Source: Bacillota bacterium
GTDB lineage: Bacteria; Bacillota; UBA5301
Direction: 5' to 3'
Length of the DNA: 64,000 bases
Assembly (NCBI GenBank): GCA_017656135.1
Contig: JACDOJ010000006.1
Span: 6,776 to 70,775 of the forward strand
The notes under the pieces are model-generated. The model searched no databases, was not told the DNA's origin, and was given only the letters and a program-made list of their open reading frames with translations. The position numbers and the translations under genes are program-made. Each line of letters starts with the position of its first letter. Position 1 is the stretch's first letter. Positions 3,952-12,446 of the stretch are shown here, one piece after another.

Positions 3952-4917
3952 TTACAACTTTAGTTTCCCGTCTTCCATGATCACTACGCCGTCAATTTCA
4001 ATGGTGGCATCGAGCATAATGCCGTCCAAGTGGCTGGGAACAGCTGTGTTCCCGCCGAAAGTCTTGTTGTCACCGATGGCGATGTGAGCGGTGCCTAGGA
4101 CCTTCTCATCCTCCAAGGGGCTGCCACAGAGCTGGGCCTGATCGTTGATTCCGATGCCCAGTTCGGCGATGTTGCGGGCGGCTTTGCCGAAGGGTTTGAT
4201 AATCTCGACAATGCGCCGGGCCGCCTCTCCACCGGTGATATCGGTGACATAGCCTTCCTTGACGTTGAAGGTAATCTTTTCGTTTTCCAAAACTCCTGCC
4301 CCAGACATGGAGCCATCCACTACGAAGATACCGTTGGCAGTGCCTTCCACCGGAGCGATGAAGGCTTCACCGGCTGGAAAGTTGCTGAAAAGCCCCGGTT
4401 CCCTAACCAAACCGGTATCAGGATGACCCTTCCGCCCTTCTAAACTCATAGTGATATCAGTACCGGCCGGGGTGGTCACCCGAGCGGTCTTGCCCTTGGT
4501 TAGGATATCCGCCAACTGCACACCGATTTCAGCGATGTGCTCGTAGTTGGCCTGAACCGCCCGTTCCAAGGTTTCCGGCAAGATTCCAGGCAGGGTGAAG
4601 ATCCGGGCCCCAGCCTCGTTGGCGGCCTTCCGGGCTGCCGTGTGGGAGAGGGACTTGCTGGTGGGGGCCAGTACCACCGCCGCCTTTTTCATGGCTTCAG
4701 CCACCATCTCCGGCGGCTCTTGACCGTGGGTGGCCCGGGGAATAATCTCTATAATGCTGGCATCGGCCCCCAAGTCTTTGGCTGCTCGCCAGAGCAGTTC
4801 CCCGATCTCACGCAGGGGCTCGTCTGTGACAACCAGCACCTCTTCTCCCTCCTTGACCCCAAGACAGGTCTCGAGAATCCGGGCAGCATCTCCCCGGAGT
4901 CGGCTTAAATCTTTCAT
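3952..4917 (-). CDS. Aminopeptidase, M29/aminopeptidase T-like
   Basis: NFPAGEAF, AELGIG, EDEK.LGTAHIAIG and HLDG metal-ligand motifs. Confidence 0.8.
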   Translation of the reverse strand: MKDLSRLRGDAARILETCLGVKEGEEVLVVTDEPLREIGELLWRAAKDLGADASIIEIIPRATHGQEPPEMVAEAMKKAAVVLAPTSKSLSHTAARKAANEAGARIFTLPGILPETLERAVQANYEHIAEIGVQLADILTKGKTARVTTPAGTDITMSLEGRKGHPDTGLVREPGLFSNFPAGEAFIAPVEGTANGIFVVDGSMSGAGVLENEKITFNVKEGYVTDITGGEAARRIVEIIKPFGKAARNIAELGIGINDQAQLCGSPLEDEKVLGTAHIAIGDNKTFGGNTAVPSHLDGIMLDATIEIDGVVIMEDGKLKL

Positions 4918-4922
4918 CCTAA

Positions 4923-6101
4923 CTACCCCTCTCTGATTAATTCTGCTACTAACTCCGCTATATCCAAAACCCTAACTGGGGACTTGCGGTCCTGTAGGCC
5001 CAAGGTGAAGACCTGGCGGCACTCGGCACAGGCGGTGACCAGAGTGTCGATGCCGCTCTCCTCGATCTGGTCCAACCGGGGCTGGCTGATCTTGTTGGCC
5101 AGTTTCTGGTCGACCATGTACAGGTTTCCCCCGGCACCGCAGCACAAGCTGTCCTGGTGGTGATTGGCAAGTTCTACAAACTCAAGTTCGGGAATGGCCC
5201 GTAAAATCCTGCGAGGAGCTTCGTAGATACCCAGGTGCCGGCCTAAATCACAGGAGTCGTGATAGCTGACTCGCCGGGGATAAGGTTTCAAGTCCAAACC
5301 ACCCTGGTCCACCAGATCAGCCAAGTACTCCGTGTAGTGGAGCAGCCTGAAAGGTAGCTGGCCCTTATTATACCTGGGGTATTCCTCCAGCCAGGTGCTC
5401 TGGCACGAGGGACAGATAAAGACCAGTTTATCCACACCCAGCTCCCGAACCTTGGAGATGTTGTTTTCCGCCAAAATCTCAGCGGTTGCCAAGTCCCCTG
5501 CAGTGGTCAGAGGGTTTCCGCAGCAGTGTTCATCGGCACCTAAGAAGTAGGCCTTGACCCCCGCCTTCAAAAAGACATTGGCCAGAGCCAGGGGGATTCC
5601 GGAAACTAAAGGATAAAAAGAAGCCACACACCCTACAAACACGGCGATATCGGGGTTTTCCGGCTTGAGCACCTTCGGATAGCCTTGCAGGGGCATAGCC
5701 CAGAAGCTGCGGTTTTCATTGGCCAGGGAAAAGATGTTTTTGTTCCTTTTGACCCGTTCTCGGGTGGACCTGAGACTGGCAGGTTCATAGCCCTTTTTGC
5801 CCAGGTGGTGTTTAACCCCCTGCCAGAGATTCATCAAATCCAAGTGAGTCGGACAGACTTGTGTGCAGCGGCGACAGTTAGTGCACTGCCAGAAGCGCTG
5901 GGAAAACTCCTCAGGCAAGTTGGCCAGAGGAGGATAGGTGCTTAACAAGTTCTGCAGCTGGTAGACCTTGTTGCGGGGAGAGGTGCTCTCCCAACCCAAT
6001 GCTCGGTAAACCGGGCAGACCCGGCGACAGTACCCGCATTGAATGCAGGAGAAGGCTTCACTATGTAATTTGCCGAAAGAAAAATCCTTCTCGACCCCCA
6101 T
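4923..6101 (-). CDS. Fe-S protein with two 4Fe-4S and two CCG domains (GlcF/GlpC/HdrD-like)
   Basis: CIQCGYCRRVCP, CTNCRRCTQVCP, GC..., CCG, CPSC, HDSCDLGR, CCGAGG, CAEC. Confidence 0.9.
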   Translation of the reverse strand: MGVEKDFSFGKLHSEAFSCIQCGYCRRVCPVYRALGWESTSPRNKVYQLQNLLSTYPPLANLPEEFSQRFWQCTNCRRCTQVCPTHLDLMNLWQGVKHHLGKKGYEPASLRSTRERVKRNKNIFSLANENRSFWAMPLQGYPKVLKPENPDIAVFVGCVASFYPLVSGIPLALANVFLKAGVKAYFLGADEHCCGNPLTTAGDLATAEILAENNISKVRELGVDKLVFICPSCQSTWLEEYPRYNKGQLPFRLLHYTEYLADLVDQGGLDLKPYPRRVSYHDSCDLGRHLGIYEAPRRILRAIPELEFVELANHHQDSLCCGAGGNLYMVDQKLANKISQPRLDQIEESGIDTLVTACAECRQVFTLGLQDRKSPVRVLDIAELVAELIREG

Positions 6102-7556
6102 TTAACTCTCCACTCTTCCTAGGCGCTGCAAAATTTTCCTAAAAATTCGCAGAGCCGTCATGGAGGCCCCAAAAAGCCTGGGCTTTAAGACGACAGGCGG
6201 ATTATGGGCTTTGCCGGGGTTAATGATCCCGCTGGGATCCAGGCGCTCTTTACGCTCTCTGATTTTCCGCCGCTCACTGGCTGAATAAGCGTATTTCAGA
6301 TACGGGGTGTTCCAAAGACCGATCCCCAGGGGTTTGGCCCCAAACTTAAAGGCTGTCCGATAGATGGAGTTGACCAGTGAAAGGTCCAAAAGGTACTGAA
6401 CTGTCCTGGCCTCATCGGTCCAAAACATGGTGGTCACATAGGCCTCCTGACGGCTGGTGACGTACCCGAAGGTGATCATAGGCTTCTGAGAACCGGTGGC
6501 CAGGGCACCAATCCCCTCTACATAGGAGCTGATTTTATTTAACGGCATCAGGGTTTCGGCCCCTAAAAGAGATGGACCTGTCCTCTGGAGCCGGAAATTG
6601 TAGAAGCGGTCAGCCCAAAACTTCTCCGCCTGCCACTTGGGGAGCTGGTGAAGTTCGTGTTCCAGTTTGAGCCACCTCACTCGCTGCACGCCCTGTTCCA
6701 CCTGGTCGGCATCGCCGAAGAAATCAACGGCCAAAAACGTCCCGGGCAAAATAGCATCCCAGTTGATGCGCCTGATCGGCTGCCCACCCAGGGTGGCCGA
6801 GACGAAGGTGAGGTTGTAGGGCAGAAAGGGACCGTCTATAGTCTTCAAGAGAAACCGCTGCAGTTCACCGATATTGGAAAAGCCAAAAGCCATATGGGCT
6901 TCCGAGGTCGGTTTCGGCTCCAGTTTCAGCTCTAAAGAAGTCACCACTCCTAAAGTACCTTCGGAGCCAAAGAACCACTGAATCGGTGGATCGCTCTGGT
7001 GGGTGCACTGGACAATCTCGCCGCCGGCCAAGACCACTTCCAGCCTCTCTACCTGGTTTAGCAAGGAGCCGTGCTGGAGAGAGCCGTAGCCTCGGCCGCC
7101 GTTGTTAAACCAGCCCCCGATAGTTCCCACCGGAGCGCTGGAGGGAAAGGTCGCCAAAGAGAGACCTCGCTTTTTGGCTTCCTCCTGCAGTTCGTAGATG
7201 ATGGTTCCGGCCCCTACTTGAACACTGGGTCTCTCTAAGTTCCAGGGGCCAATGGTATTGAGGCAATTGAGATCCAAGAGCACCCCGCCTTTGGCAGGCA
7301 CGCTCTGAAAAAGAGAGGTGGAACCGGCACCCCTGGGAGTCACCGGAACCCGGTGCTCTGCCGCCCACTTCAGCAAGGCTGCAACCTGCTGTACATTCCG
7401 GGGCAAGACAACCAAATCAGGCAGGGTCTTGAGCCAGTCGCTGGTCAGAAAGCCATCCAATGAAGACATATCGTGGGTGTAGGCCAACCGTTCGTAGTGG
7501 GAATCGGTGGCAACCTTTTTTAATTCCGGAGGTAAACTGGCCATTAACTCGGACAC
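6102..7556 (-). CDS. FAD-linked oxidoreductase (GlcD/VAO-like fold), atypical C-terminus
   Basis: VPVTPRGAGS, PSSA..GTIGG, GSEGTLGVVT, LDPSGIINPGK. GTG start at 7556 just after the gcvH-like stop. Confidence 0.85.
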   Translation of the reverse strand: MSELMASLPPELKKVATDSHYERLAYTHDMSSLDGFLTSDWLKTLPDLVVLPRNVQQVAALLKWAAEHRVPVTPRGAGSTSLFQSVPAKGGVLLDLNCLNTIGPWNLERPSVQVGAGTIIYELQEEAKKRGLSLATFPSSAPVGTIGGWFNNGGRGYGSLQHGSLLNQVERLEVVLAGGEIVQCTHQSDPPIQWFFGSEGTLGVVTSLELKLEPKPTSEAHMAFGFSNIGELQRFLLKTIDGPFLPYNLTFVSATLGGQPIRRINWDAILPGTFLAVDFFGDADQVEQGVQRVRWLKLEHELHQLPKWQAEKFWADRFYNFRLQRTGPSLLGAETLMPLNKISSYVEGIGALATGSQKPMITFGYVTSRQEAYVTTMFWTDEARTVQYLLDLSLVNSIYRTAFKFGAKPLGIGLWNTPYLKYAYSASERRKIRERKERLDPSGIINPGKAHNPPVVLKPRLFGASMTALRIFRKILQRLGRVES

Positions 7557-7560
7557 TGTA

Positions 7561-7989
7561 TCACCCGCTGTGCCGCTCAATTTCCCTCTCCAACCAGTCC
7601 ACAGCGTCTTTCCCGTAATAAAGCCGTTTGAGCGCCTCATCAACCGGCTCCGAGGGTTCAATCACCACCACCCAACCCTCCCCGTAAGGATCCTCATTGA
7701 CCAAGGCCGGATACTCGGTAAGCTGGTCGTTGACCTCCACCACTACACCGGAAGCGGCAGGTTTGATCCAACCCACCCATTTGGCGGACTGAAAAGAGAA
7801 GACCGGAGTGGTCAACTCAGTACGCTGGCCTTTATCCGGCAGTTTAACAAAGGTAAGTTTTCCAGCCATCTTCTGGGTAAAATCAGTCAGGCCCATCTGA
7901 AGACGCCCGTCCGACAGTAACCTGACCCAGGCATGGTCAGAGGTGTAATACAGGTCATCCGGAACTGAATACCCTTGGACCTCTGACAT
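7561..7989 (-). CDS. Glycine cleavage H-like / LbpA-like lipoyl carrier protein
   Basis: PDDLYY..HAWV, GLTDF.Q, lipoyl-lysine segment QSAKWVG, SGVVVEVN, NEDPYGEGW. Confidence 0.88.
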   Translation of the reverse strand: MSEVQGYSVPDDLYYTSDHAWVRLLSDGRLQMGLTDFTQKMAGKLTFVKLPDKGQRTELTTPVFSFQSAKWVGWIKPAASGVVVEVNDQLTEYPALVNEDPYGEGWVVVIEPSEPVDEALKRLYYGKDAVDWLEREIERHSG

Positions 7990-7991
7990 TC

Positions 7992-8879
7992 TCAATCACC
8001 CTTCTCCATATAATTCTCGGTATACTTACCTTTAATCCGAACGCCAACTACATCCCACGTCAAACCCGCCTTTTGAATGGGGAGATAGTCCACGTTAACC
8101 GACTCTGCTACCTTAAAACTTGCAGGCCTGCGGCGTTTACTCCGACCATACTCCATCAAGCGGGACGGGTCCAGATACACTGGTTTCAGCTCTTGCATCT
8201 TCTTTTCCAGGCTAGGATCGACTTCGGTCCTGCACAACGGGCCTAACACGCCGGCCAGCTGCTCCTCTAGAGCCTGGCAGACCTCACTGTACTCTGAAGA
8301 CAACCTGGAAAGCCAGCCCACATAGGTTTGAACTTTGCTGGAAACCACCTGTTTCTGCAGGGGGGAGTCGAATTTAAGTCCGGCCAGAAACCCAGCGGTA
8401 TCAAAATGGGTCAGAACGTTTCCGGAAAGAACCACTGTTTCCCCAATCTCTCCAGCACCGTTGCCGGATATCTTCCGTCCACCCGCCCAGATGTCGGCCA
8501 CCGGCACGTAGGTTGCGGGAATACCCAGTCCCCGCAAGGCAGCTGCAACAGGCTCCAGGAACTGACCGTAAAACTTAGGGCGGTTCAGGGTGAAGAGGGG
8601 ACTCGTTTTTGGCAAAACAATCTGGTAGAAAAACTGCCCCGGGTGCAGGTAAACTAAACCGCCACCTAAATCCCGGCGCATAACCGGAATCCCCTGCTCC
8701 GTAAGATAAGCCAAATCCAAGAGCTCCACCGAATCATGGTAGCCCAGACAGTAAAAAGGACGGTCCGGCTCACAAAAAACCAGGGCCCTACGGCCCAAGT
8801 CTGCTAAAGCGGCGTAGATTACCTGCGTCTGCCACCAAGGGATTCTCCCCAAGTCATACAGGAGAAACTCCTCTCCCAT
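7992..8879 (-). CDS. Lipoate-protein ligase/transferase family (sLpl(AB)-like catalytic domain)
   Basis: LGYH, RRDLGGGLVYL...QFFYQ, GRKISGNGAG. ATG at 8879 directly after the aminotransferase stop. Confidence 0.82.
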   Translation of the reverse strand: MGEEFLLYDLGRIPWWQTQVIYAALADLGRRALVFCEPDRPFYCLGYHDSVELLDLAYLTEQGIPVMRRDLGGGLVYLHPGQFFYQIVLPKTSPLFTLNRPKFYGQFLEPVAAALRGLGIPATYVPVADIWAGGRKISGNGAGEIGETVVLSGNVLTHFDTAGFLAGLKFDSPLQKQVVSSKVQTYVGWLSRLSSEYSEVCQALEEQLAGVLGPLCRTEVDPSLEKKMQELKPVYLDPSRLMEYGRSKRRRPASFKVAESVNVDYLPIQKAGLTWDVVGVRIKGKYTENYMEKGD

Positions 8880-8881
8880 GG

Positions 8882-10063
8882 CTAGCCCGTCATCCGCCGC
8901 ACAAATTCGGCTATCCTCCGGCACCCTTCAGCTATATCCTGCTCAGACGCGGCGTATGACAACCGCATATGGCCAGGAGCGCCAAAGGCCTCACCTGGAA
9001 CTGTAGCTACATAACTTTCACTCAAAAGCCTGCGGCAGAATTCCTGGGAGCTGGAGATGCCCTCTACTCCCCTGATATCAACAAAGAGGTAAAAGGCTCC
9101 CTGAGGCAGTGCTACTTTCAGACCGGGCACCTCTTTGAGCATGGAATACATCAACTCCCGACGCCGGGCAAAGGCCTGCCGCATTTGGGCCACTTCCGGA
9201 ACCTCGTGAGTCAGAGCGGCTAATGCAGCGTACTGGGCTACGGAGGTGGCATTGGAGGTGGAGTGGCTCTGCAAAGTCACCATGGCTTTGATCAAAACCT
9301 CGGGGCCTACCGCCCAACCCAGACGCCACCCAGTCATACTGTAGCTCTTGGAGACACCGCTGATCACCACAGTGCGCTCCCGGGCACCGGAAAGCGCCGC
9401 CGTACAAGTATGCTCACCCTGGTAGACCAAGTCCTCATAGATCTCATCTGAGATTATGAGGAGGTTGTGTTCTGCAGCCAGTGTCACCAGCTCCTCCAGG
9501 AACTTGCGGGGATAGACAGCACCAGTGGGGTTATTTGGTGAGTTGATCAGGATGGCCTTGGTCTGGTGGGAGAGGACGGTTTTGATTCTCTCTAAGTCTG
9601 GCACAAAGCCATCATCCAGTTCAGTAGAAACAATTATCGGCCGCCCCCCGGCCAGTTTGATCATCTCAGGGTAGCTCACCCAGTAGGGGCTCATCATTAC
9701 CACTTCGTCCCCAGACTCCAGAATGGTCTGAAAAAGATTATATAGGGCCTGCTTGCCGCCGACGGTGATGACAGTCTCACCAGGCTCATAAGTTACCCCG
9801 TAGCGTTCCCGGTACCTTTCGGCCACCGCCTCTCTCAGCTCTGGAATCCCTGGGGTTGCAGTGTACTTGGTCTTTCCTTGCTTTAAAGCCTCCACTGCCG
9901 CCGCAGTCACCGCCGGTGGGGTCGAGAAATCCGGCTCACCGGTGGCGAAACTAAGCACCGGCTTCCCCTGCCTGAGGTACTCCTTAGCCAGGGCGTTGAT
10001 CTCCAATGTCGCCGAGGGGGTTATTTGCATCACCCGCTGGGACAGAAAGTTAGTGTAGTCCAT
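8882..10063 (-). CDS. PLP-dependent aminotransferase class I/II (AspC-like)
   Basis: GEPDF, GGKQAL, NSPNNPTG, SDEIY, SKSYSMTGWRLG, GAFY. Confidence 0.92.
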   Translation of the reverse strand: MDYTNFLSQRVMQITPSATLEINALAKEYLRQGKPVLSFATGEPDFSTPPAVTAAAVEALKQGKTKYTATPGIPELREAVAERYRERYGVTYEPGETVITVGGKQALYNLFQTILESGDEVVMMSPYWVSYPEMIKLAGGRPIIVSTELDDGFVPDLERIKTVLSHQTKAILINSPNNPTGAVYPRKFLEELVTLAAEHNLLIISDEIYEDLVYQGEHTCTAALSGARERTVVISGVSKSYSMTGWRLGWAVGPEVLIKAMVTLQSHSTSNATSVAQYAALAALTHEVPEVAQMRQAFARRRELMYSMLKEVPGLKVALPQGAFYLFVDIRGVEGISSSQEFCRRLLSESYVATVPGEAFGAPGHMRLSYAASEQDIAEGCRRIAEFVRRMTG

Positions 10064-10081
10064 ACTCACTCCTCCAACTGG

Positions 10082-10838: not shown

Positions 10839-12446
10839 CTAATCGGCCAATTCCTCTTCAGCCCTGGGGACCGAGGAGAGGATCTCGTCAACCTCCAGCG
10901 CGTCCAGTTCGGTTACAAAGGGGATGCCGGTGAGCTCAGCTGCCTCCCTGGTGAGGGATGCCAGGTCACCGCGGTCGATATACTTCAAGGCGAACTTCCT
11001 GGCACCGCACATCAGCTGTTTGAGGCCCTGGGCAATCCGAGAGTAGTAGGTATAGACCGCAATTGCTCCAGCCGGGATATACTTGAAGTCGGAACCGTAC
11101 TTGGCTTTCAACTCAGTGGCTCCGGCAAAGAGGTTCTCGTAGTCGGAACCGTATTTAGCCAAATCCCGGGGAAGCTTACCCTCAGCAGCCAGTTTGCCCA
11201 CGGTCTTGCCGACCATAGCGGCAGCCAACGGGCCCCGACCCATGCCTACAGCCTTAGTGTAGGGCGCGCTTAAAGCCAAACCCTTGAAGACGGCATCCTC
11301 GAGGGTGAAACCGCCGGCAATGGCCACATCAGGCACATAGGCACCGGCTTTCTCGATCCGCTGGAGATACTCGTAGAGGAGGCTCTGGAGGTAAACGGTT
11401 GGTACGCCCCACTCGTTCATCATCCGCCACGGGCTCATCCCGGTACCGCCGCCGGCTCCGTCTACCGTCAAAAGGTCGATCCTGGCCTGGGAGGCGAACT
11501 TAACGGCCCTGGCCAGGTCAGCCGGACGATAGGCTCCGGTTTTGAGGAAGACATGTTTGGCACCTAAGGAGCGCAGCTCCTCAACCCGGCGCATGAAGTC
11601 TTCTTCATCGACCATGCCCACCCGGGAGTGCCGCTCAAACTCGGTGAAAACCCCAGCTTTGAAGGCAGCCTGAATCTTGGGGTCTTCCGGATCCGGAAGA
11701 ACGACATAACCCCGAGACTTGAGCATCAAAGCCTTCTCCAGGTTGTCGATTTTAACCTCGCCGCCGATGTCTTTGGCCCCTTGCCCCCACTTGAGCTCAA
11801 CAGTGTCCACACCCAGCTCACTTATGGCATACTCCAAGGTGCCCAGCCTAGTGTCTTCCACGTTGGCCTGAACAACTATGGTTCCGTAGCCGTCGTACCA
11901 GTCTTGGAAGAGCTTAACCCTTTCAGCCAGGTCCGGAGCCTTGACTACCCGGCCGTTTTTGAATTCGCTCTTGGGATCCATGCCCACTACGTTCTCGCCG
12001 ATCACCAGCATGCTGCCGCTGATGGCACTGCCGATGGCAAGACCATCCCAGTTGATCTTAGCTACATTAGTGGACCCTAGGCCGGGAATGAACCAGGGTA
12101 CTTTGAGCTTAATTTTGTCTTTGTATCCAAATTCGGTTTCAATATTGACGTTAGGAAAGATGGCTTTATCGCTGTCAGATTCGATGCCATGGGCACCTAC
12201 TGCAGTACCCATGATGTTGAAGTGGGAATAATCAATAGGGTAGTCTTTCTCTGAGGCAGCGGTCATGGTTCCGTAGGGGGCGGGGTAGATCACTTCACTT
12301 CCCCTGAGAGCCGATTTGCCGACTTCACAAAGCCCGGTACACCCTTCGATACAGGTGGCGCACATACCGCTGAAAGGGCTGACACTGCCCGCCGTTCTGT
12401 TTTTCGTAAAGGTTGCCGCGGTAGCATTAGTCTTACTATAACTCAT
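10839..12446 (-). CDS. FMN-binding glutamate synthase family protein (stand-alone)
   Basis: N-terminal CxxCxxxCxxxC, ELKWGQGAK.IGGE, LKTG, DGAGGGTG, IAGG. Confidence 0.85.
   Translation of the reverse strand: MSYSKTNATAATFTKNRTAGSVSPFSGMCATCIEGCTGLCEVGKSALRGSEVIYPAPYGTMTAASEKDYPIDYSHFNIMGTAVGAHGIESDSDKAIFPNVNIETEFGYKDKIKLKVPWFIPGLGSTNVAKINWDGLAIGSAISGSMLVIGENVVGMDPKSEFKNGRVVKAPDLAERVKLFQDWYDGYGTIVVQANVEDTRLGTLEYAISELGVDTVELKWGQGAKDIGGEVKIDNLEKALMLKSRGYVVLPDPEDPKIQAAFKAGVFTEFERHSRVGMVDEEDFMRRVEELRSLGAKHVFLKTGAYRPADLARAVKFASQARIDLLTVDGAGGGTGMSPWRMMNEWGVPTVYLQSLLYEYLQRIEKAGAYVPDVAIAGGFTLEDAVFKGLALSAPYTKAVGMGRGPLAAAMVGKTVGKLAAEGKLPRDLAKYGSDYENLFAGATELKAKYGSDFKYIPAGAIAVYTYYSRIAQGLKQLMCGARKFALKYIDRGDLASLTREAAELTGIPFVTELDALEVDEILSSVPRAEEELAD

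Follow-up and report, generated by a model that had tools for sequence, protein, structure and literature searches.

A four-gene cassette for a lipoyl carrier, a ligase, a VAO-fold flavoprotein and an HdrD-like protein as a candidate lipoyl-protein-dependent oxidoreductase in a Bacillota bacterium

Lipoate is known to serve very few systems, namely glycine cleavage, acetoin dehydrogenase and the 2-oxoacid dehydrogenases, to which sHdr sulfur oxidation was added in 2018. A lipoyl protein also acts as a thiol redox relay in the Lpd-DlaT-AhpD-AhpC system of mycobacteria. The known or proposed substrates of the HdrD/TfrB/DsrK family are the heterodisulfide of coenzymes M and B (CoM-S-S-CoB), the CoM and CoB thiols, and DsrC; outside methanogens, what many HdrD-like CCG proteins act on has so far only been proposed. 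Another lipoyl redox relay is reportedly formed by the Trichomonas H/L-protein with OsmC (as cited in a 2026 preprint). The subject of the present analysis is a cassette of four genes at positions 4923-8879, on the minus strand, of a 64,000-nucleotide (nt) stretch (the window) of contig JACDOJ010000006.1 from the Bacillota bacterium assembly GCA_017656135.1 (UBA5301). It encodes a lipoate ligase, a GcvH-like lipoyl carrier, a flavoprotein and an iron-sulfur (Fe-S) protein with two CCG domains. As a self-contained block, these genes would specify a lipoyl-protein-dependent oxidoreductase of the HdrD type, a reading that is given a probability of about 0.58.

The closest known system is sHdr-LbpA with sLpl(AB), LipS1 and LipS2, as presented in the available parts of Cao et al. 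2018 (PMC6067878) and Tanabe et al. 2023 (PMC10332631). In the model set out in the former, the Hdr-like complex reduces the lipoyl group on LbpA, and E3 hands the electrons to NAD+. The present locus shares with this system a non-GcvH lipoate-binding protein with a dedicated ligase, CCG-type Fe-S partners together with a flavoprotein, and LipS1/S2 in the genome. It differs in having a single HdrD-like protein (a ferredoxin domain and two CCG domains) and a VAO-fold flavoprotein, with no HdrA-, HdrB- or HdrC-type subunits in the cassette. The cassette also lacks TusA and DsrE, its carrier is without the cysteine pair of LbpA and its ligase without the LplB domain. The host is a small spore-former genome, with YpeB and SleB-like genes, that encodes four CCG proteins, none of them HdrB-sized. 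By analogy, the cassette is best read as a variant of the sHdr-LbpA principle that differs in subunit types, carrier features and host.

Three other groups of systems resemble parts of the cassette. GlcDEF glycolate oxidase, D-lactate dehydrogenase with an HdrD-like partner and the fused D-2-hydroxyglutarate dehydrogenase YdiJ (PMC9504171) likewise combine FAD_binding_4 and FAD-oxidase_C domains with two [4Fe-4S] and two CCG motifs, on separate or fused chains. Unlike GlcDEF and YdiJ, the cassette flavoprotein lacks the GHxxxGxxH and GEHG motifs and belongs to a subfamily found nearly always beside lipoyl carriers. HdrD of HdrDE, TfrB, and DsrK/TmcB/HmcF of sulfate reducers have the same domain architecture as the CCG protein of the cassette; related triads of genes stand beside multihaem-cytochrome/NarI-like membrane proteins. 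Unlike the HdrDE and DsrK types, the window cassette has no membrane subunit, and its proposed substrate is protein-bound lipoamide, which was not described as a substrate of the HdrD family in the literature searched. With the lipoyl redox relays, the cassette would share the use of dihydrolipoamide as a reductant outside 2-oxoacid oxidation and glycine cleavage, and an AhpD-like gene stands beside E2 in large clusters that contain the module; the cassette itself has no AhpD or OsmC, and the proposed lipoyl reductase is the FAD/Fe-S/CCG unit, not Lpd. The literature searched held no description of a carrier-HdrD lipoate gene cluster, only work on sHdr and Aquifex; the ligases or carriers in question may figure in the supplementary tables to PMC10332631 and PMC6067878.

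All four genes are real and lie where they had been placed. They encode an LplA-type ligase (7992-8879, minus strand; 295 amino acids (aa); Pfam LplA-B_cat, 98 bits, E 8e-28), the GcvH-like carrier (7561-7995, minus; 144 aa; Pfam GCV_H, 102 bits, E 2.5e-29), a flavoprotein of the VAO/GlcD fold (6102-7556, minus; 484 aa; FAD_binding_4, 118.9 bits, E 1.8e-34; FAD-oxidase_C, 33.8 bits, E 3.6e-8) and the HdrD-like Fe-S/CCG protein (4923-6101, minus; 392 aa; two CCG stretches, E 1.7e-32; Fer4_8, E 4e-14). The tight packing between an aminotransferase gene and salvage genes, pointed out in the initial annotation, is present: ligase and carrier overlap by 4 nt, carrier and flavoprotein are 4 nt apart, and the gap between flavoprotein and CCG protein is 0 nt. 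The start codon of the flavoprotein, read directly, is the GTG at 7556. None of the four proteins reaches the cut-off of any NCBIfam model. The motifs SAKWVG in the carrier and KISGNGAG in the ligase, both singled out earlier, were found in the translations.

The predicted lipoyl-lysine of the carrier is Lys72, within QSAKWVG, and Ser70, Lys72, Trp73 and Gly75 are invariant in 30 aligned carriers. The carrier stays below the NCBIfam gcvH cut-offs (NF002270, 106.9 against 117; TIGR00527, 99.2 against 115.85); the canonical gcvH product of the same genome scores 186.7 and 176.2 on these models. A Protein Data Bank search with the carrier returned GcvH chains only, and the carrier shares the fold family and the lipoyl-lysine hairpin of the glycine cleavage H protein. 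It has no gcvT or gcvP gene adjacent, and reads S-A-K-W-V-G where the canonical copies in the alignment read S-V-K-A-x-x-D. All non-canonical carriers found have S-(G/A)-K-W-(V/L/A)-G around the lipoyl-lysine, against S-V-K-A in canonical copies, as well as a G-Y-x-x-P-(D/E)-x-L-Y-Y N-terminus and a longer C-terminus. A tree was built from 59 GcvH-family open reading frames (ORFs) of the fetched loci, after removal of duplicates and with one ORF of more than 250 aa left out. The window carrier groups with two orthologues from the same family (Shimodaira-Hasegawa-like approximate likelihood ratio test, SH-aLRT, 99) and then with carriers that precede FAD-CCG pairs elsewhere (84), and the eight rows around gcvT/P-linked copies lie behind a branch (SH-aLRT 97) that excludes it. 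As the genome has a separate canonical gcvT-gcvH-gcvPA-gcvPB set, the carrier is not needed for glycine cleavage, and the earlier distinction between it and the H protein of that system holds.

The source assembly (1.9 Mb, 86 contigs, 99.4% complete) contains three GcvH-family genes, each adjoining its own ligase gene: that of the window and one each on contigs C1 and C3. On C1 (7228-14231), the gcvT-gcvH-gcvPA-gcvPB set is followed by a LipS1-like gene, LipS2 (324 bits, above the cut-off) and a gene for a 280-aa LplA-like protein. This 280-aa protein has no C-terminal domain. GDC-P matches are confined to C1, LipS1/S2 pairs occur on C1 and C3, and the only dihydrolipoyl dehydrogenase (Lpd) is on C24 (511 bits against a cut-off of 409). 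No match to 2-oxoacid_dh, the E2 acyltransferase, was found in this 99.4% complete genome. The reported absence of GcvP/T/L, 2-oxoacid dehydrogenase, sHdr and LipS1/S2 genes from the window was thus borne out. CCG-domain proteins number four in the genome (frames of 392, 429, 695 and 1024 aa), that of the cassette being the only one on the window contig. The C3 locus (112714-117295) has the order DsrE-DsrE-GcvH-like (149 aa)-Lpl(AB) (367 aa)-LipS2-like-LipS1-like, its LipS genes being just under the NCBIfam cut-offs (228 against 270 and 220 against 230). Carriers of the C3 type directly follow the FAD-CCG pair in other genomes, so that C3 and the window may each hold one half of a single system.

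The ligase has an intact catalytic core, with RRDLGGG and GRKISGNGAG including Lys136; the GGG loop (Gly72-Gly74) and Arg135-Lys136 are invariant across 14 aligned ligases. It scores far under the cut-offs of all NCBIfam ligase models. The Pfam search found no Lip_prot_lig_C, the LplB-type C-terminal domain of sLpl(AB), in the window ligase, which stops about 50 residues short of its 345-aa relatives and of the Lpl(AB) encoded on C3. Linkage to lipS1/lipS2, another feature of sLpl(AB), is seen for the C3 ligase and not for that of the window, as the cassette holds no radical-SAM (S-adenosylmethionine) gene. Close homologues of the same short length (54-61% identity) make up 3 of 114 clusters; the remaining clusters are the family of about 345 aa, at 36-42% identity and with the same RKISGNGAGEIG stretch. 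In a tree of 60 rows drawn from a larger set, the window ligase joins the copies of its own family and then 345-aa ligases of Chloroflexota, and gene-context labels are not cleanly resolved. From the precedents of LplA/LplB and LipM/LipL, such a truncated ligase may require a helper domain or may be a transferase.

The CCG protein contains the two CxxCxxCxxxC and two C..CCG..CxxC motifs of the HdrD/HdrB type. Its 18 motif cysteines (19, 22, 25, 29; 73, 76, 79, 83; 158, 193, 194, 230, 233; 284, 320, 321, 358, 361) are invariant in 46 sequences. Its best NCBIfam matches are all below the cut-offs and include the LdhH C-terminus (177 against 800), TfrB (172 against 385) and DsrK; among solved chains, a 1042-aa 'iron-sulfur-binding reductase' and HdrB subunits come closest. 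A tree of 78 of 116 ORFs, in which small groups were kept whole and large ones sampled at random, places the window, FAD-linked and carrier-linked types in one group of 64 rows (SH-aLRT 81), to the exclusion of six CCG proteins encoded after canonical GlcD-like genes (100), two fused paralogues and a protein from contig C9. The FAD and Fe-S/CCG modules are fused in relatives of about 1000 aa and in two proteins of the same genome, and this fusion therefore supports their joint working.

Co-folding, a check proposed with the initial annotation, was run on the CCG protein and the carrier. The interface score ipSAE was 0.81, 0.80 and 0.79, against 0.11 for the best of three controls, with a predicted local distance difference test score (pLDDT) of 90-91 for the partners and agreement between runs in at least 90% of contacts. 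The alignments comprised 46 CCG and 30 carrier sequences. Of 80 solved complexes, 58 attain the mark applied, as do 2 of 110 mismatched pairs; both counts hold only roughly here because custom alignments were used. In the model, the predicted lipoyl-lysine loop of the carrier docks on the CCG domains: the interface comprises carrier residues 48-51, 63-64, 67-69 and 71-76, the last including Lys72, and CCG protein residues 124-136, 162-167, 328-335 and 367-370, just past Cys158, Cys320/321 and Cys358/361. To our knowledge there is no solved GcvH-CCG complex, and the result is thus probably not due to model memory. In a search of longer proteins with the carrier domain, the sole match was P0115, a 594-aa metagenome protein in which a GcvH-like domain is fused to dihydrolipoamide dehydrogenase.

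The recurrence of the module was examined in two surveys. The ligase survey used one genome per species and the best 80 of 396 relatives. Two loci (L008 and L009) have the window order HhH-aminotransferase-ligase-carrier-FAD-CCG-M29-mtnP-mtnA-ahcY; 75 of the other 78 gave a ligase ORF, and 53 had at least 3 kb upstream. Within about 3 kb at these 53 loci, a CCG gene was present in 33, a carrier gene in 24 and both in 19, and a multihaem-cytochrome/NarI-like gene was found at 28. The typical order in metagenome-assembled genomes of Desulfobacterota and Chloroflexota is (cytochrome/NarI)-carrier-CCG-ligase. Just upstream, four loci (L018, L023, L024 and L074) have another CCG gene and a GlcD-like gene of the canonical type. 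At the 28 loci with a cytochrome/NarI-like gene, as at L074 (4042-5808) and L044 (1855-4990), the carrier-CCG-ligase triad stands beside a protein of about 585 aa in which a multihaem cytochrome c is fused to a NarI-like membrane domain, and the L044 triad is also accompanied by an NrfD-like protein. These cytochrome-linked triads resemble transmembrane complexes of the Tmc/Hmc/DsrMK type, by analogy with which the lipoyl protein is a possible cytoplasmic partner.

The flavoprotein survey covered metagenome contigs and gave 77 loci, 68 with an FAD label (all except L152, L174, L190, L191, L197, L198, L199, L205 and L206). The CCG gene directly follows the flavoprotein gene in 51 of the 59 loci with at least 900 bp downstream, and in 33 of the 35 with room on both sides a GcvH-like carrier gene is no more than about 3 kb away. 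Among the 34 loci of at least 10 kb, 32 hold a carrier, 31 a CCG, 29 a ligase and 27 a lipoyl synthase gene; E1/E2 genes are present in 25, Lpd in 5, DsrE in 4 and an mtn-type neighbour in none. Many of these belong to a large lipoate cluster (L133, 1313-16567; about 25 of the 34) that contains two complete lipoyl assembly routes and usually no adjacent E3. Its first half encodes E1 alpha and beta subunits resembling those of pyruvate dehydrogenase (PDH), E2, an AhpD-like protein, LipB, LipA, the carrier, the flavoprotein and the CCG protein; its second half encodes a short ligase, a second carrier, Lpl(AB), a member of the geranylgeranyl-reductase family (LipT-like), LipS2 and LipS1. The same cluster core was found in three genomes (G001-G003) reached via the ligase survey. 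The linkage of carrier, ligase, flavoprotein and CCG genes extends over distant lineages; it is a strong recurrent association and not a set of independent events.

Because the genes are linked across lineages and the co-fold puts the lipoyl-lysine loop on the CCG protein, a lipoamide oxidoreductase other than E3, as first suggested in the initial annotation, is the best reading of the cassette. In the proposed mechanism, the ligase would load octanoate or lipoate onto Lys72 of the carrier, and sulfur insertion, if needed, would fall to the LipS1/S2 pairs of contigs C1 and C3. The lipoyl-lysine hairpin would then dock on the two CCG domains of the HdrD-like protein, whose non-cubane [4Fe-4S] clusters would open or close the dithiolane. 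The two ferredoxin-type [4Fe-4S] clusters would relay electrons, in one direction or the other, between the CCG domains and the FAD of the VAO-fold subunit, and this subunit would exchange hydride with a partner X other than a 2-hydroxy acid. On its other side, the carrier would probably work with Lpd and NAD(H), and the simplest full circuit would be X <-> FAD <-> 2x[4Fe-4S] <-> CCG <-> lipoyl-carrier <-> Lpd <-> NAD(H). The genome pattern, with a canonical gcvTH-PA-PB set that has its own H protein, no E2 and one Lpd, was counted for this mechanism; Lpd also exceeds the cut-off in all five other module-bearing genomes tested. At the large loci, E1/E2 genes without an adjacent Lpd gene would fit an E3-like role there, in which dihydrolipoyl groups are oxidised.

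Complete with carrier and ligase, and with a flavoprotein in which the 2-hydroxyacid site is lost, the cassette could be expressed as a minimal system for asking whether the non-cubane clusters of CCG proteins act on protein-bound lipoamide. The answer would bear on electron flow in several abundant anaerobic lineages, as the module occurs in many uncultured anaerobes beside PDH-like E1/E2 genes, mostly without adjacent E3, and its CCG relatives occur beside cytochrome membrane modules. A wider proposal, held at somewhat less than even odds, is that GcvH-like lipoyl proteins are physiological dithiol/disulfide substrates of a widespread HdrD-type CCG family in anaerobes (Bacillota, Chloroflexota and Desulfobacterota). 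Coupled to VAO-fold flavoproteins or to multihaem-cytochrome/NarI modules, this family would form a lipoamide hub linking donors or periplasmic electrons to Lpd/NAD(H) and to 2-oxoacid dehydrogenase clusters that lack E3. If true, such a hub would extend the sHdr-LbpA principle far past the sulfur oxidisers.

Several points weigh against the assignment of the cassette as a lipoamide oxidoreductase. The survey counts are not independent, as the loci were found via the ligase or flavoprotein of the window itself and many are kin, and about 11 of the 53 ligase loci (as read from the list of misses) show neither a carrier nor a CCG gene in the part of the locus covered. The co-fold support is a model score, and the search of longer proteins gave no carrier-CCG fusion, a blank that is weak evidence. 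A potential of X above about -0.29 V would make lipoamide reduction uphill, so that electrons may flow in either direction. Lastly, the same gene linkage would be expected if the FAD-CCG pair served lipoate assembly or repair, and most large loci also hold LipA/LipB, LipS1/S2 and LipT-like genes.

This last point leads to the alternative that survives best, although it is judged unlikely: the FAD-CCG pair would feed electrons to, or handle sulfur for, LipS1/S2 or LipA, or would repair lipoyl groups, and the carrier would be a substrate or relay intermediate. The ligase and lipoyl synthase genes at 29 and 27 of the 34 large flavoprotein loci are in its favour, as is the large cluster with LipB, LipA, two ligases, the LipT-like protein, LipS2 and LipS1. 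CCG domains with two complete motifs of five cysteines are, however, known from HdrB for thiol/disulfide chemistry, for which Wagner 2017 is reportedly the source, and not for the reduction of radical-SAM clusters. The window cassette contains no synthase gene, and the carrier-CCG-ligase triads beside cytochrome/NarI modules point to electron transfer of the respiratory type. LipT has been proposed as the electron donor of LipS1/S2 (available part of PMC10332631). The genome has two LipS1/S2 pairs and, with the LipA-, LipB- and LipT-like proteins of the large cluster as BLAST queries, gave no match; the missing LipT-like match counts in favour of this alternative, and the co-occurrence of the LipT-like gene with FAD-CCG in some large clusters counts against it.

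Next comes sulfur chemistry of the sHdr kind, which is improbable as an account of the cassette. In line with proposals for LbpA/sHdr and DsrC/DsrK, sulfane sulfur would be borne by the carrier, as a persulfide or trisulfide, and be reduced or oxidised by the CCG protein. DsrE genes do stand beside related carriers, at the C3 locus, at four ligase loci (L019, L025, L044 and L052) and at 4 of the 34 large flavoprotein loci, and the CCG protein has DsrK and TfrB among its best NCBIfam matches. The other 30 large loci have no DsrE, however, and the cassette is without a DsrE, TusA or rhodanese gene. LbpA is marked by two conserved cysteines near the termini, according to the available parts of PMC6067878 and a 2026 preprint. 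Against this pair, the window carrier has no cysteine, and each of its two orthologues has one, near the N-terminus only; the lipoyl-lysine conserved in LbpA is present as Lys72. No shdr cluster adjoins the carrier gene, and no HdrB-sized protein is found among the four CCG proteins of the genome (HdrA and HdrC were not searched for). The likeness to the LbpA/sLpl(AB) pair that had been drawn in the initial annotation therefore stands only for the S-x-K-W motif, which is common to all non-canonical carriers, and falls for the cysteine pair, an sHdrB-sized protein and the LplB domain of the ligase. By the features tested, the carrier is neither a canonical GcvH nor an LbpA.

The flavoprotein bears on a further alternative, according to which the cassette encodes an ordinary quinone-linked dehydrogenase of D-2-hydroxy acids (lactate, glycolate or D-2-hydroxyglutarate (D-2-HG)) of the GlcDF/YdiJ kind, with carrier and ligase as mere neighbours. 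The domain set, FAD_binding_4 and FAD-oxidase_C with two [4Fe-4S] and two CCG motifs, would fit. LctD and D-lactate dehydrogenase (D-LDH) are the nearest solved relatives of the flavoprotein. Its exact 484-aa translation is held in the ESM Atlas (model with a predicted template modelling score, pTM, of 0.89), whose automatic names read D-lactate dehydrogenase. On the glcD model, the flavoprotein scores 129 bits against a cut-off of 568. Arg386, His434, His441, Glu475 and His476 of human D-2-HG dehydrogenase are strictly conserved in D-LDHs and GlcD and explain the use of 2-hydroxy acids, according to the available part of PMC7801405. With these residue numbers mapped onto motifs by spacing (Arg386 was not mapped), the two histidines and the Glu-His pair correspond to GHxxxGxxH and GEHG. 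Both motifs are kept by LctD, mouse LDHD, the GlcD-like proteins of related loci and YdiJ of E. coli K-12, the last being a D-2-HG dehydrogenase (available part of PMC9504171). In the window protein they are replaced by FGYVTSRQEAY (FGY....QEAY) and KPLGIGLWNTPY (KPLGIG), which the window orthologues share, and the wider FAD-CCG-linked subfamily deviates similarly. Judged from its motifs, the flavoprotein does not appear to be an ordinary 2-hydroxyacid dehydrogenase, and the loss of the His/His/Glu/His site casts doubt on lactate, glycolate or a keto acid as its substrate; the keto or hydroxy acid put forward in the initial annotation is thereby called into question. As this subfamily is also near-obligately linked to carriers, and the carrier is predicted to dock on the CCG protein, a dehydrogenase working apart from the carrier is very improbable. 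The fused FAD/Fe-S/CCG proteins of the genome are encoded at C7:45959-48982 and C42:1391-3427, and the 1007-aa paralogue on C7 also lacks GHxxxGxxH and GEHG.

The surroundings of the cassette are those of a methionine/SAM salvage array, in the order HhH-aminotransferase-block-M29-mtnP-mtnA-ahcY-deaminase, with gltX next. The aminotransferase gene (8882-10069) flanks the ligase side: its stop codon runs to 8882 and the ligase starts with the ATG at 8879, the junction being 8880-8881. On the other side, the stop codon of the CCG gene ends at 4923 and the M29-like gene (3952-4917, minus; 321 aa) starts at 4917, leaving a junction of 4918-4922. The names given earlier to the flanking genes hold for mtnP, mtnA and ahcY (methylthioadenosine phosphorylase, methylthioribose-1-phosphate isomerase and adenosylhomocysteinase), which exceed the NCBIfam cut-offs. 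The gene labelled 'mtaD' is a TRZ/ATZ amidohydrolase below every NCBIfam cut-off, and the 'aminopeptidase' is the M29-like protein.

The junction was compared in relatives without the block. In three genomes of the same class (G007, G010 and G012), M29 and salvage genes come straight after the aminotransferase gene; all three keep mtnA and the deaminase gene, and mtnP is kept in G007 and G012, ahcY in G007 and G010, and gltX in G010 and G012. In G013, also of this class, two other ORFs lie between aminotransferase and M29, and the block is absent. In G004, of the same family, M29 starts 8 nt past the aminotransferase gene. Orthologues of the ligase were found in two of the three other genomes in the family (the remaining one is 81% complete), and in none of 7 from the class or 30 from the phylum. 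Between the window and the two relatives, the cassette proteins are 54-70% identical and the salvage proteins 79-84%; the GC composition of the block shows no anomaly. Because block-free relatives have the aminotransferase directly before M29, the four genes are read as a cassette inserted at this junction in the lineage of the window genome and two relatives.

The tie to salvage of SAM by-products does not survive this comparison. No mtn, ahcY, M29 or aminotransferase-type neighbour was seen at the 75 other ligase loci or at the 68 flavoprotein loci, and the proposed survey for the block with mtnA/mtnP found the window order only in L008 and L009. On genome comparison, the salvage operon is a landing site of the cassette, and its role as a functional partner is unsupported. 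Oxidation of a metabolite of the methylthioribulose-1-phosphate/5-deoxyribulose-1-phosphate branch, or of a keto or hydroxy acid derived from methionine or homocysteine, is for these reasons largely refuted by the comparative data and the least probable account of all, despite the packing of the block in an array without internal terminator-like sites and its identical order in two related genomes, and there is no aldolase gene downstream, where gltX is found instead. 5'-Deoxyadenosine, the radical-SAM by-product, was considered as a link between lipoyl synthesis and salvage and was rejected, because the cassette holds no synthase gene and is an insertion.

Of the Peptidase_M29 profile, the M29-like protein matches only positions 193-348 of 406, and weakly (44 bits); it matches no NCBIfam model. 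It is nevertheless kept at 53-57% identity (best match per genome) beside mtnP or mtnA across the class, as an unassigned but constant component of the array.

One RNA-seq library, labelled oil field metagenome, has contigs that correspond to parts of the block (about 97-98% identity); among them, a contig of 659 nt spans 7368-8026, with the start of the flavoprotein gene, the whole carrier gene and the end of the ligase gene. DNA runs labelled oil field or oil production facility also match parts of the block, and the contigs of run X1, which may represent the source sample, are near-identical across the whole stretch. All matching runs are contigs, whose depth and strand carry no expression information and whose uncovered parts are not evidence, and those of the RNA library do not prove transcription of the block.

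A promoter and terminator scan of the region gave counts that are not above those of shuffled sequences. The sole convincing terminator-like site (10812-10788) lies upstream of the HhH gene, and none stands out inside the array. Beyond it, a gene at 10839-12446 (minus) encodes a 535-aa protein with only a partial match to the FMN domain of Glu_synthase and no NCBIfam family. Of the promoter-like sites in the region, the best (12532-12504, 11 of 12 matches) precedes this gene, and the terminator-like site at 10812-10788 follows it.

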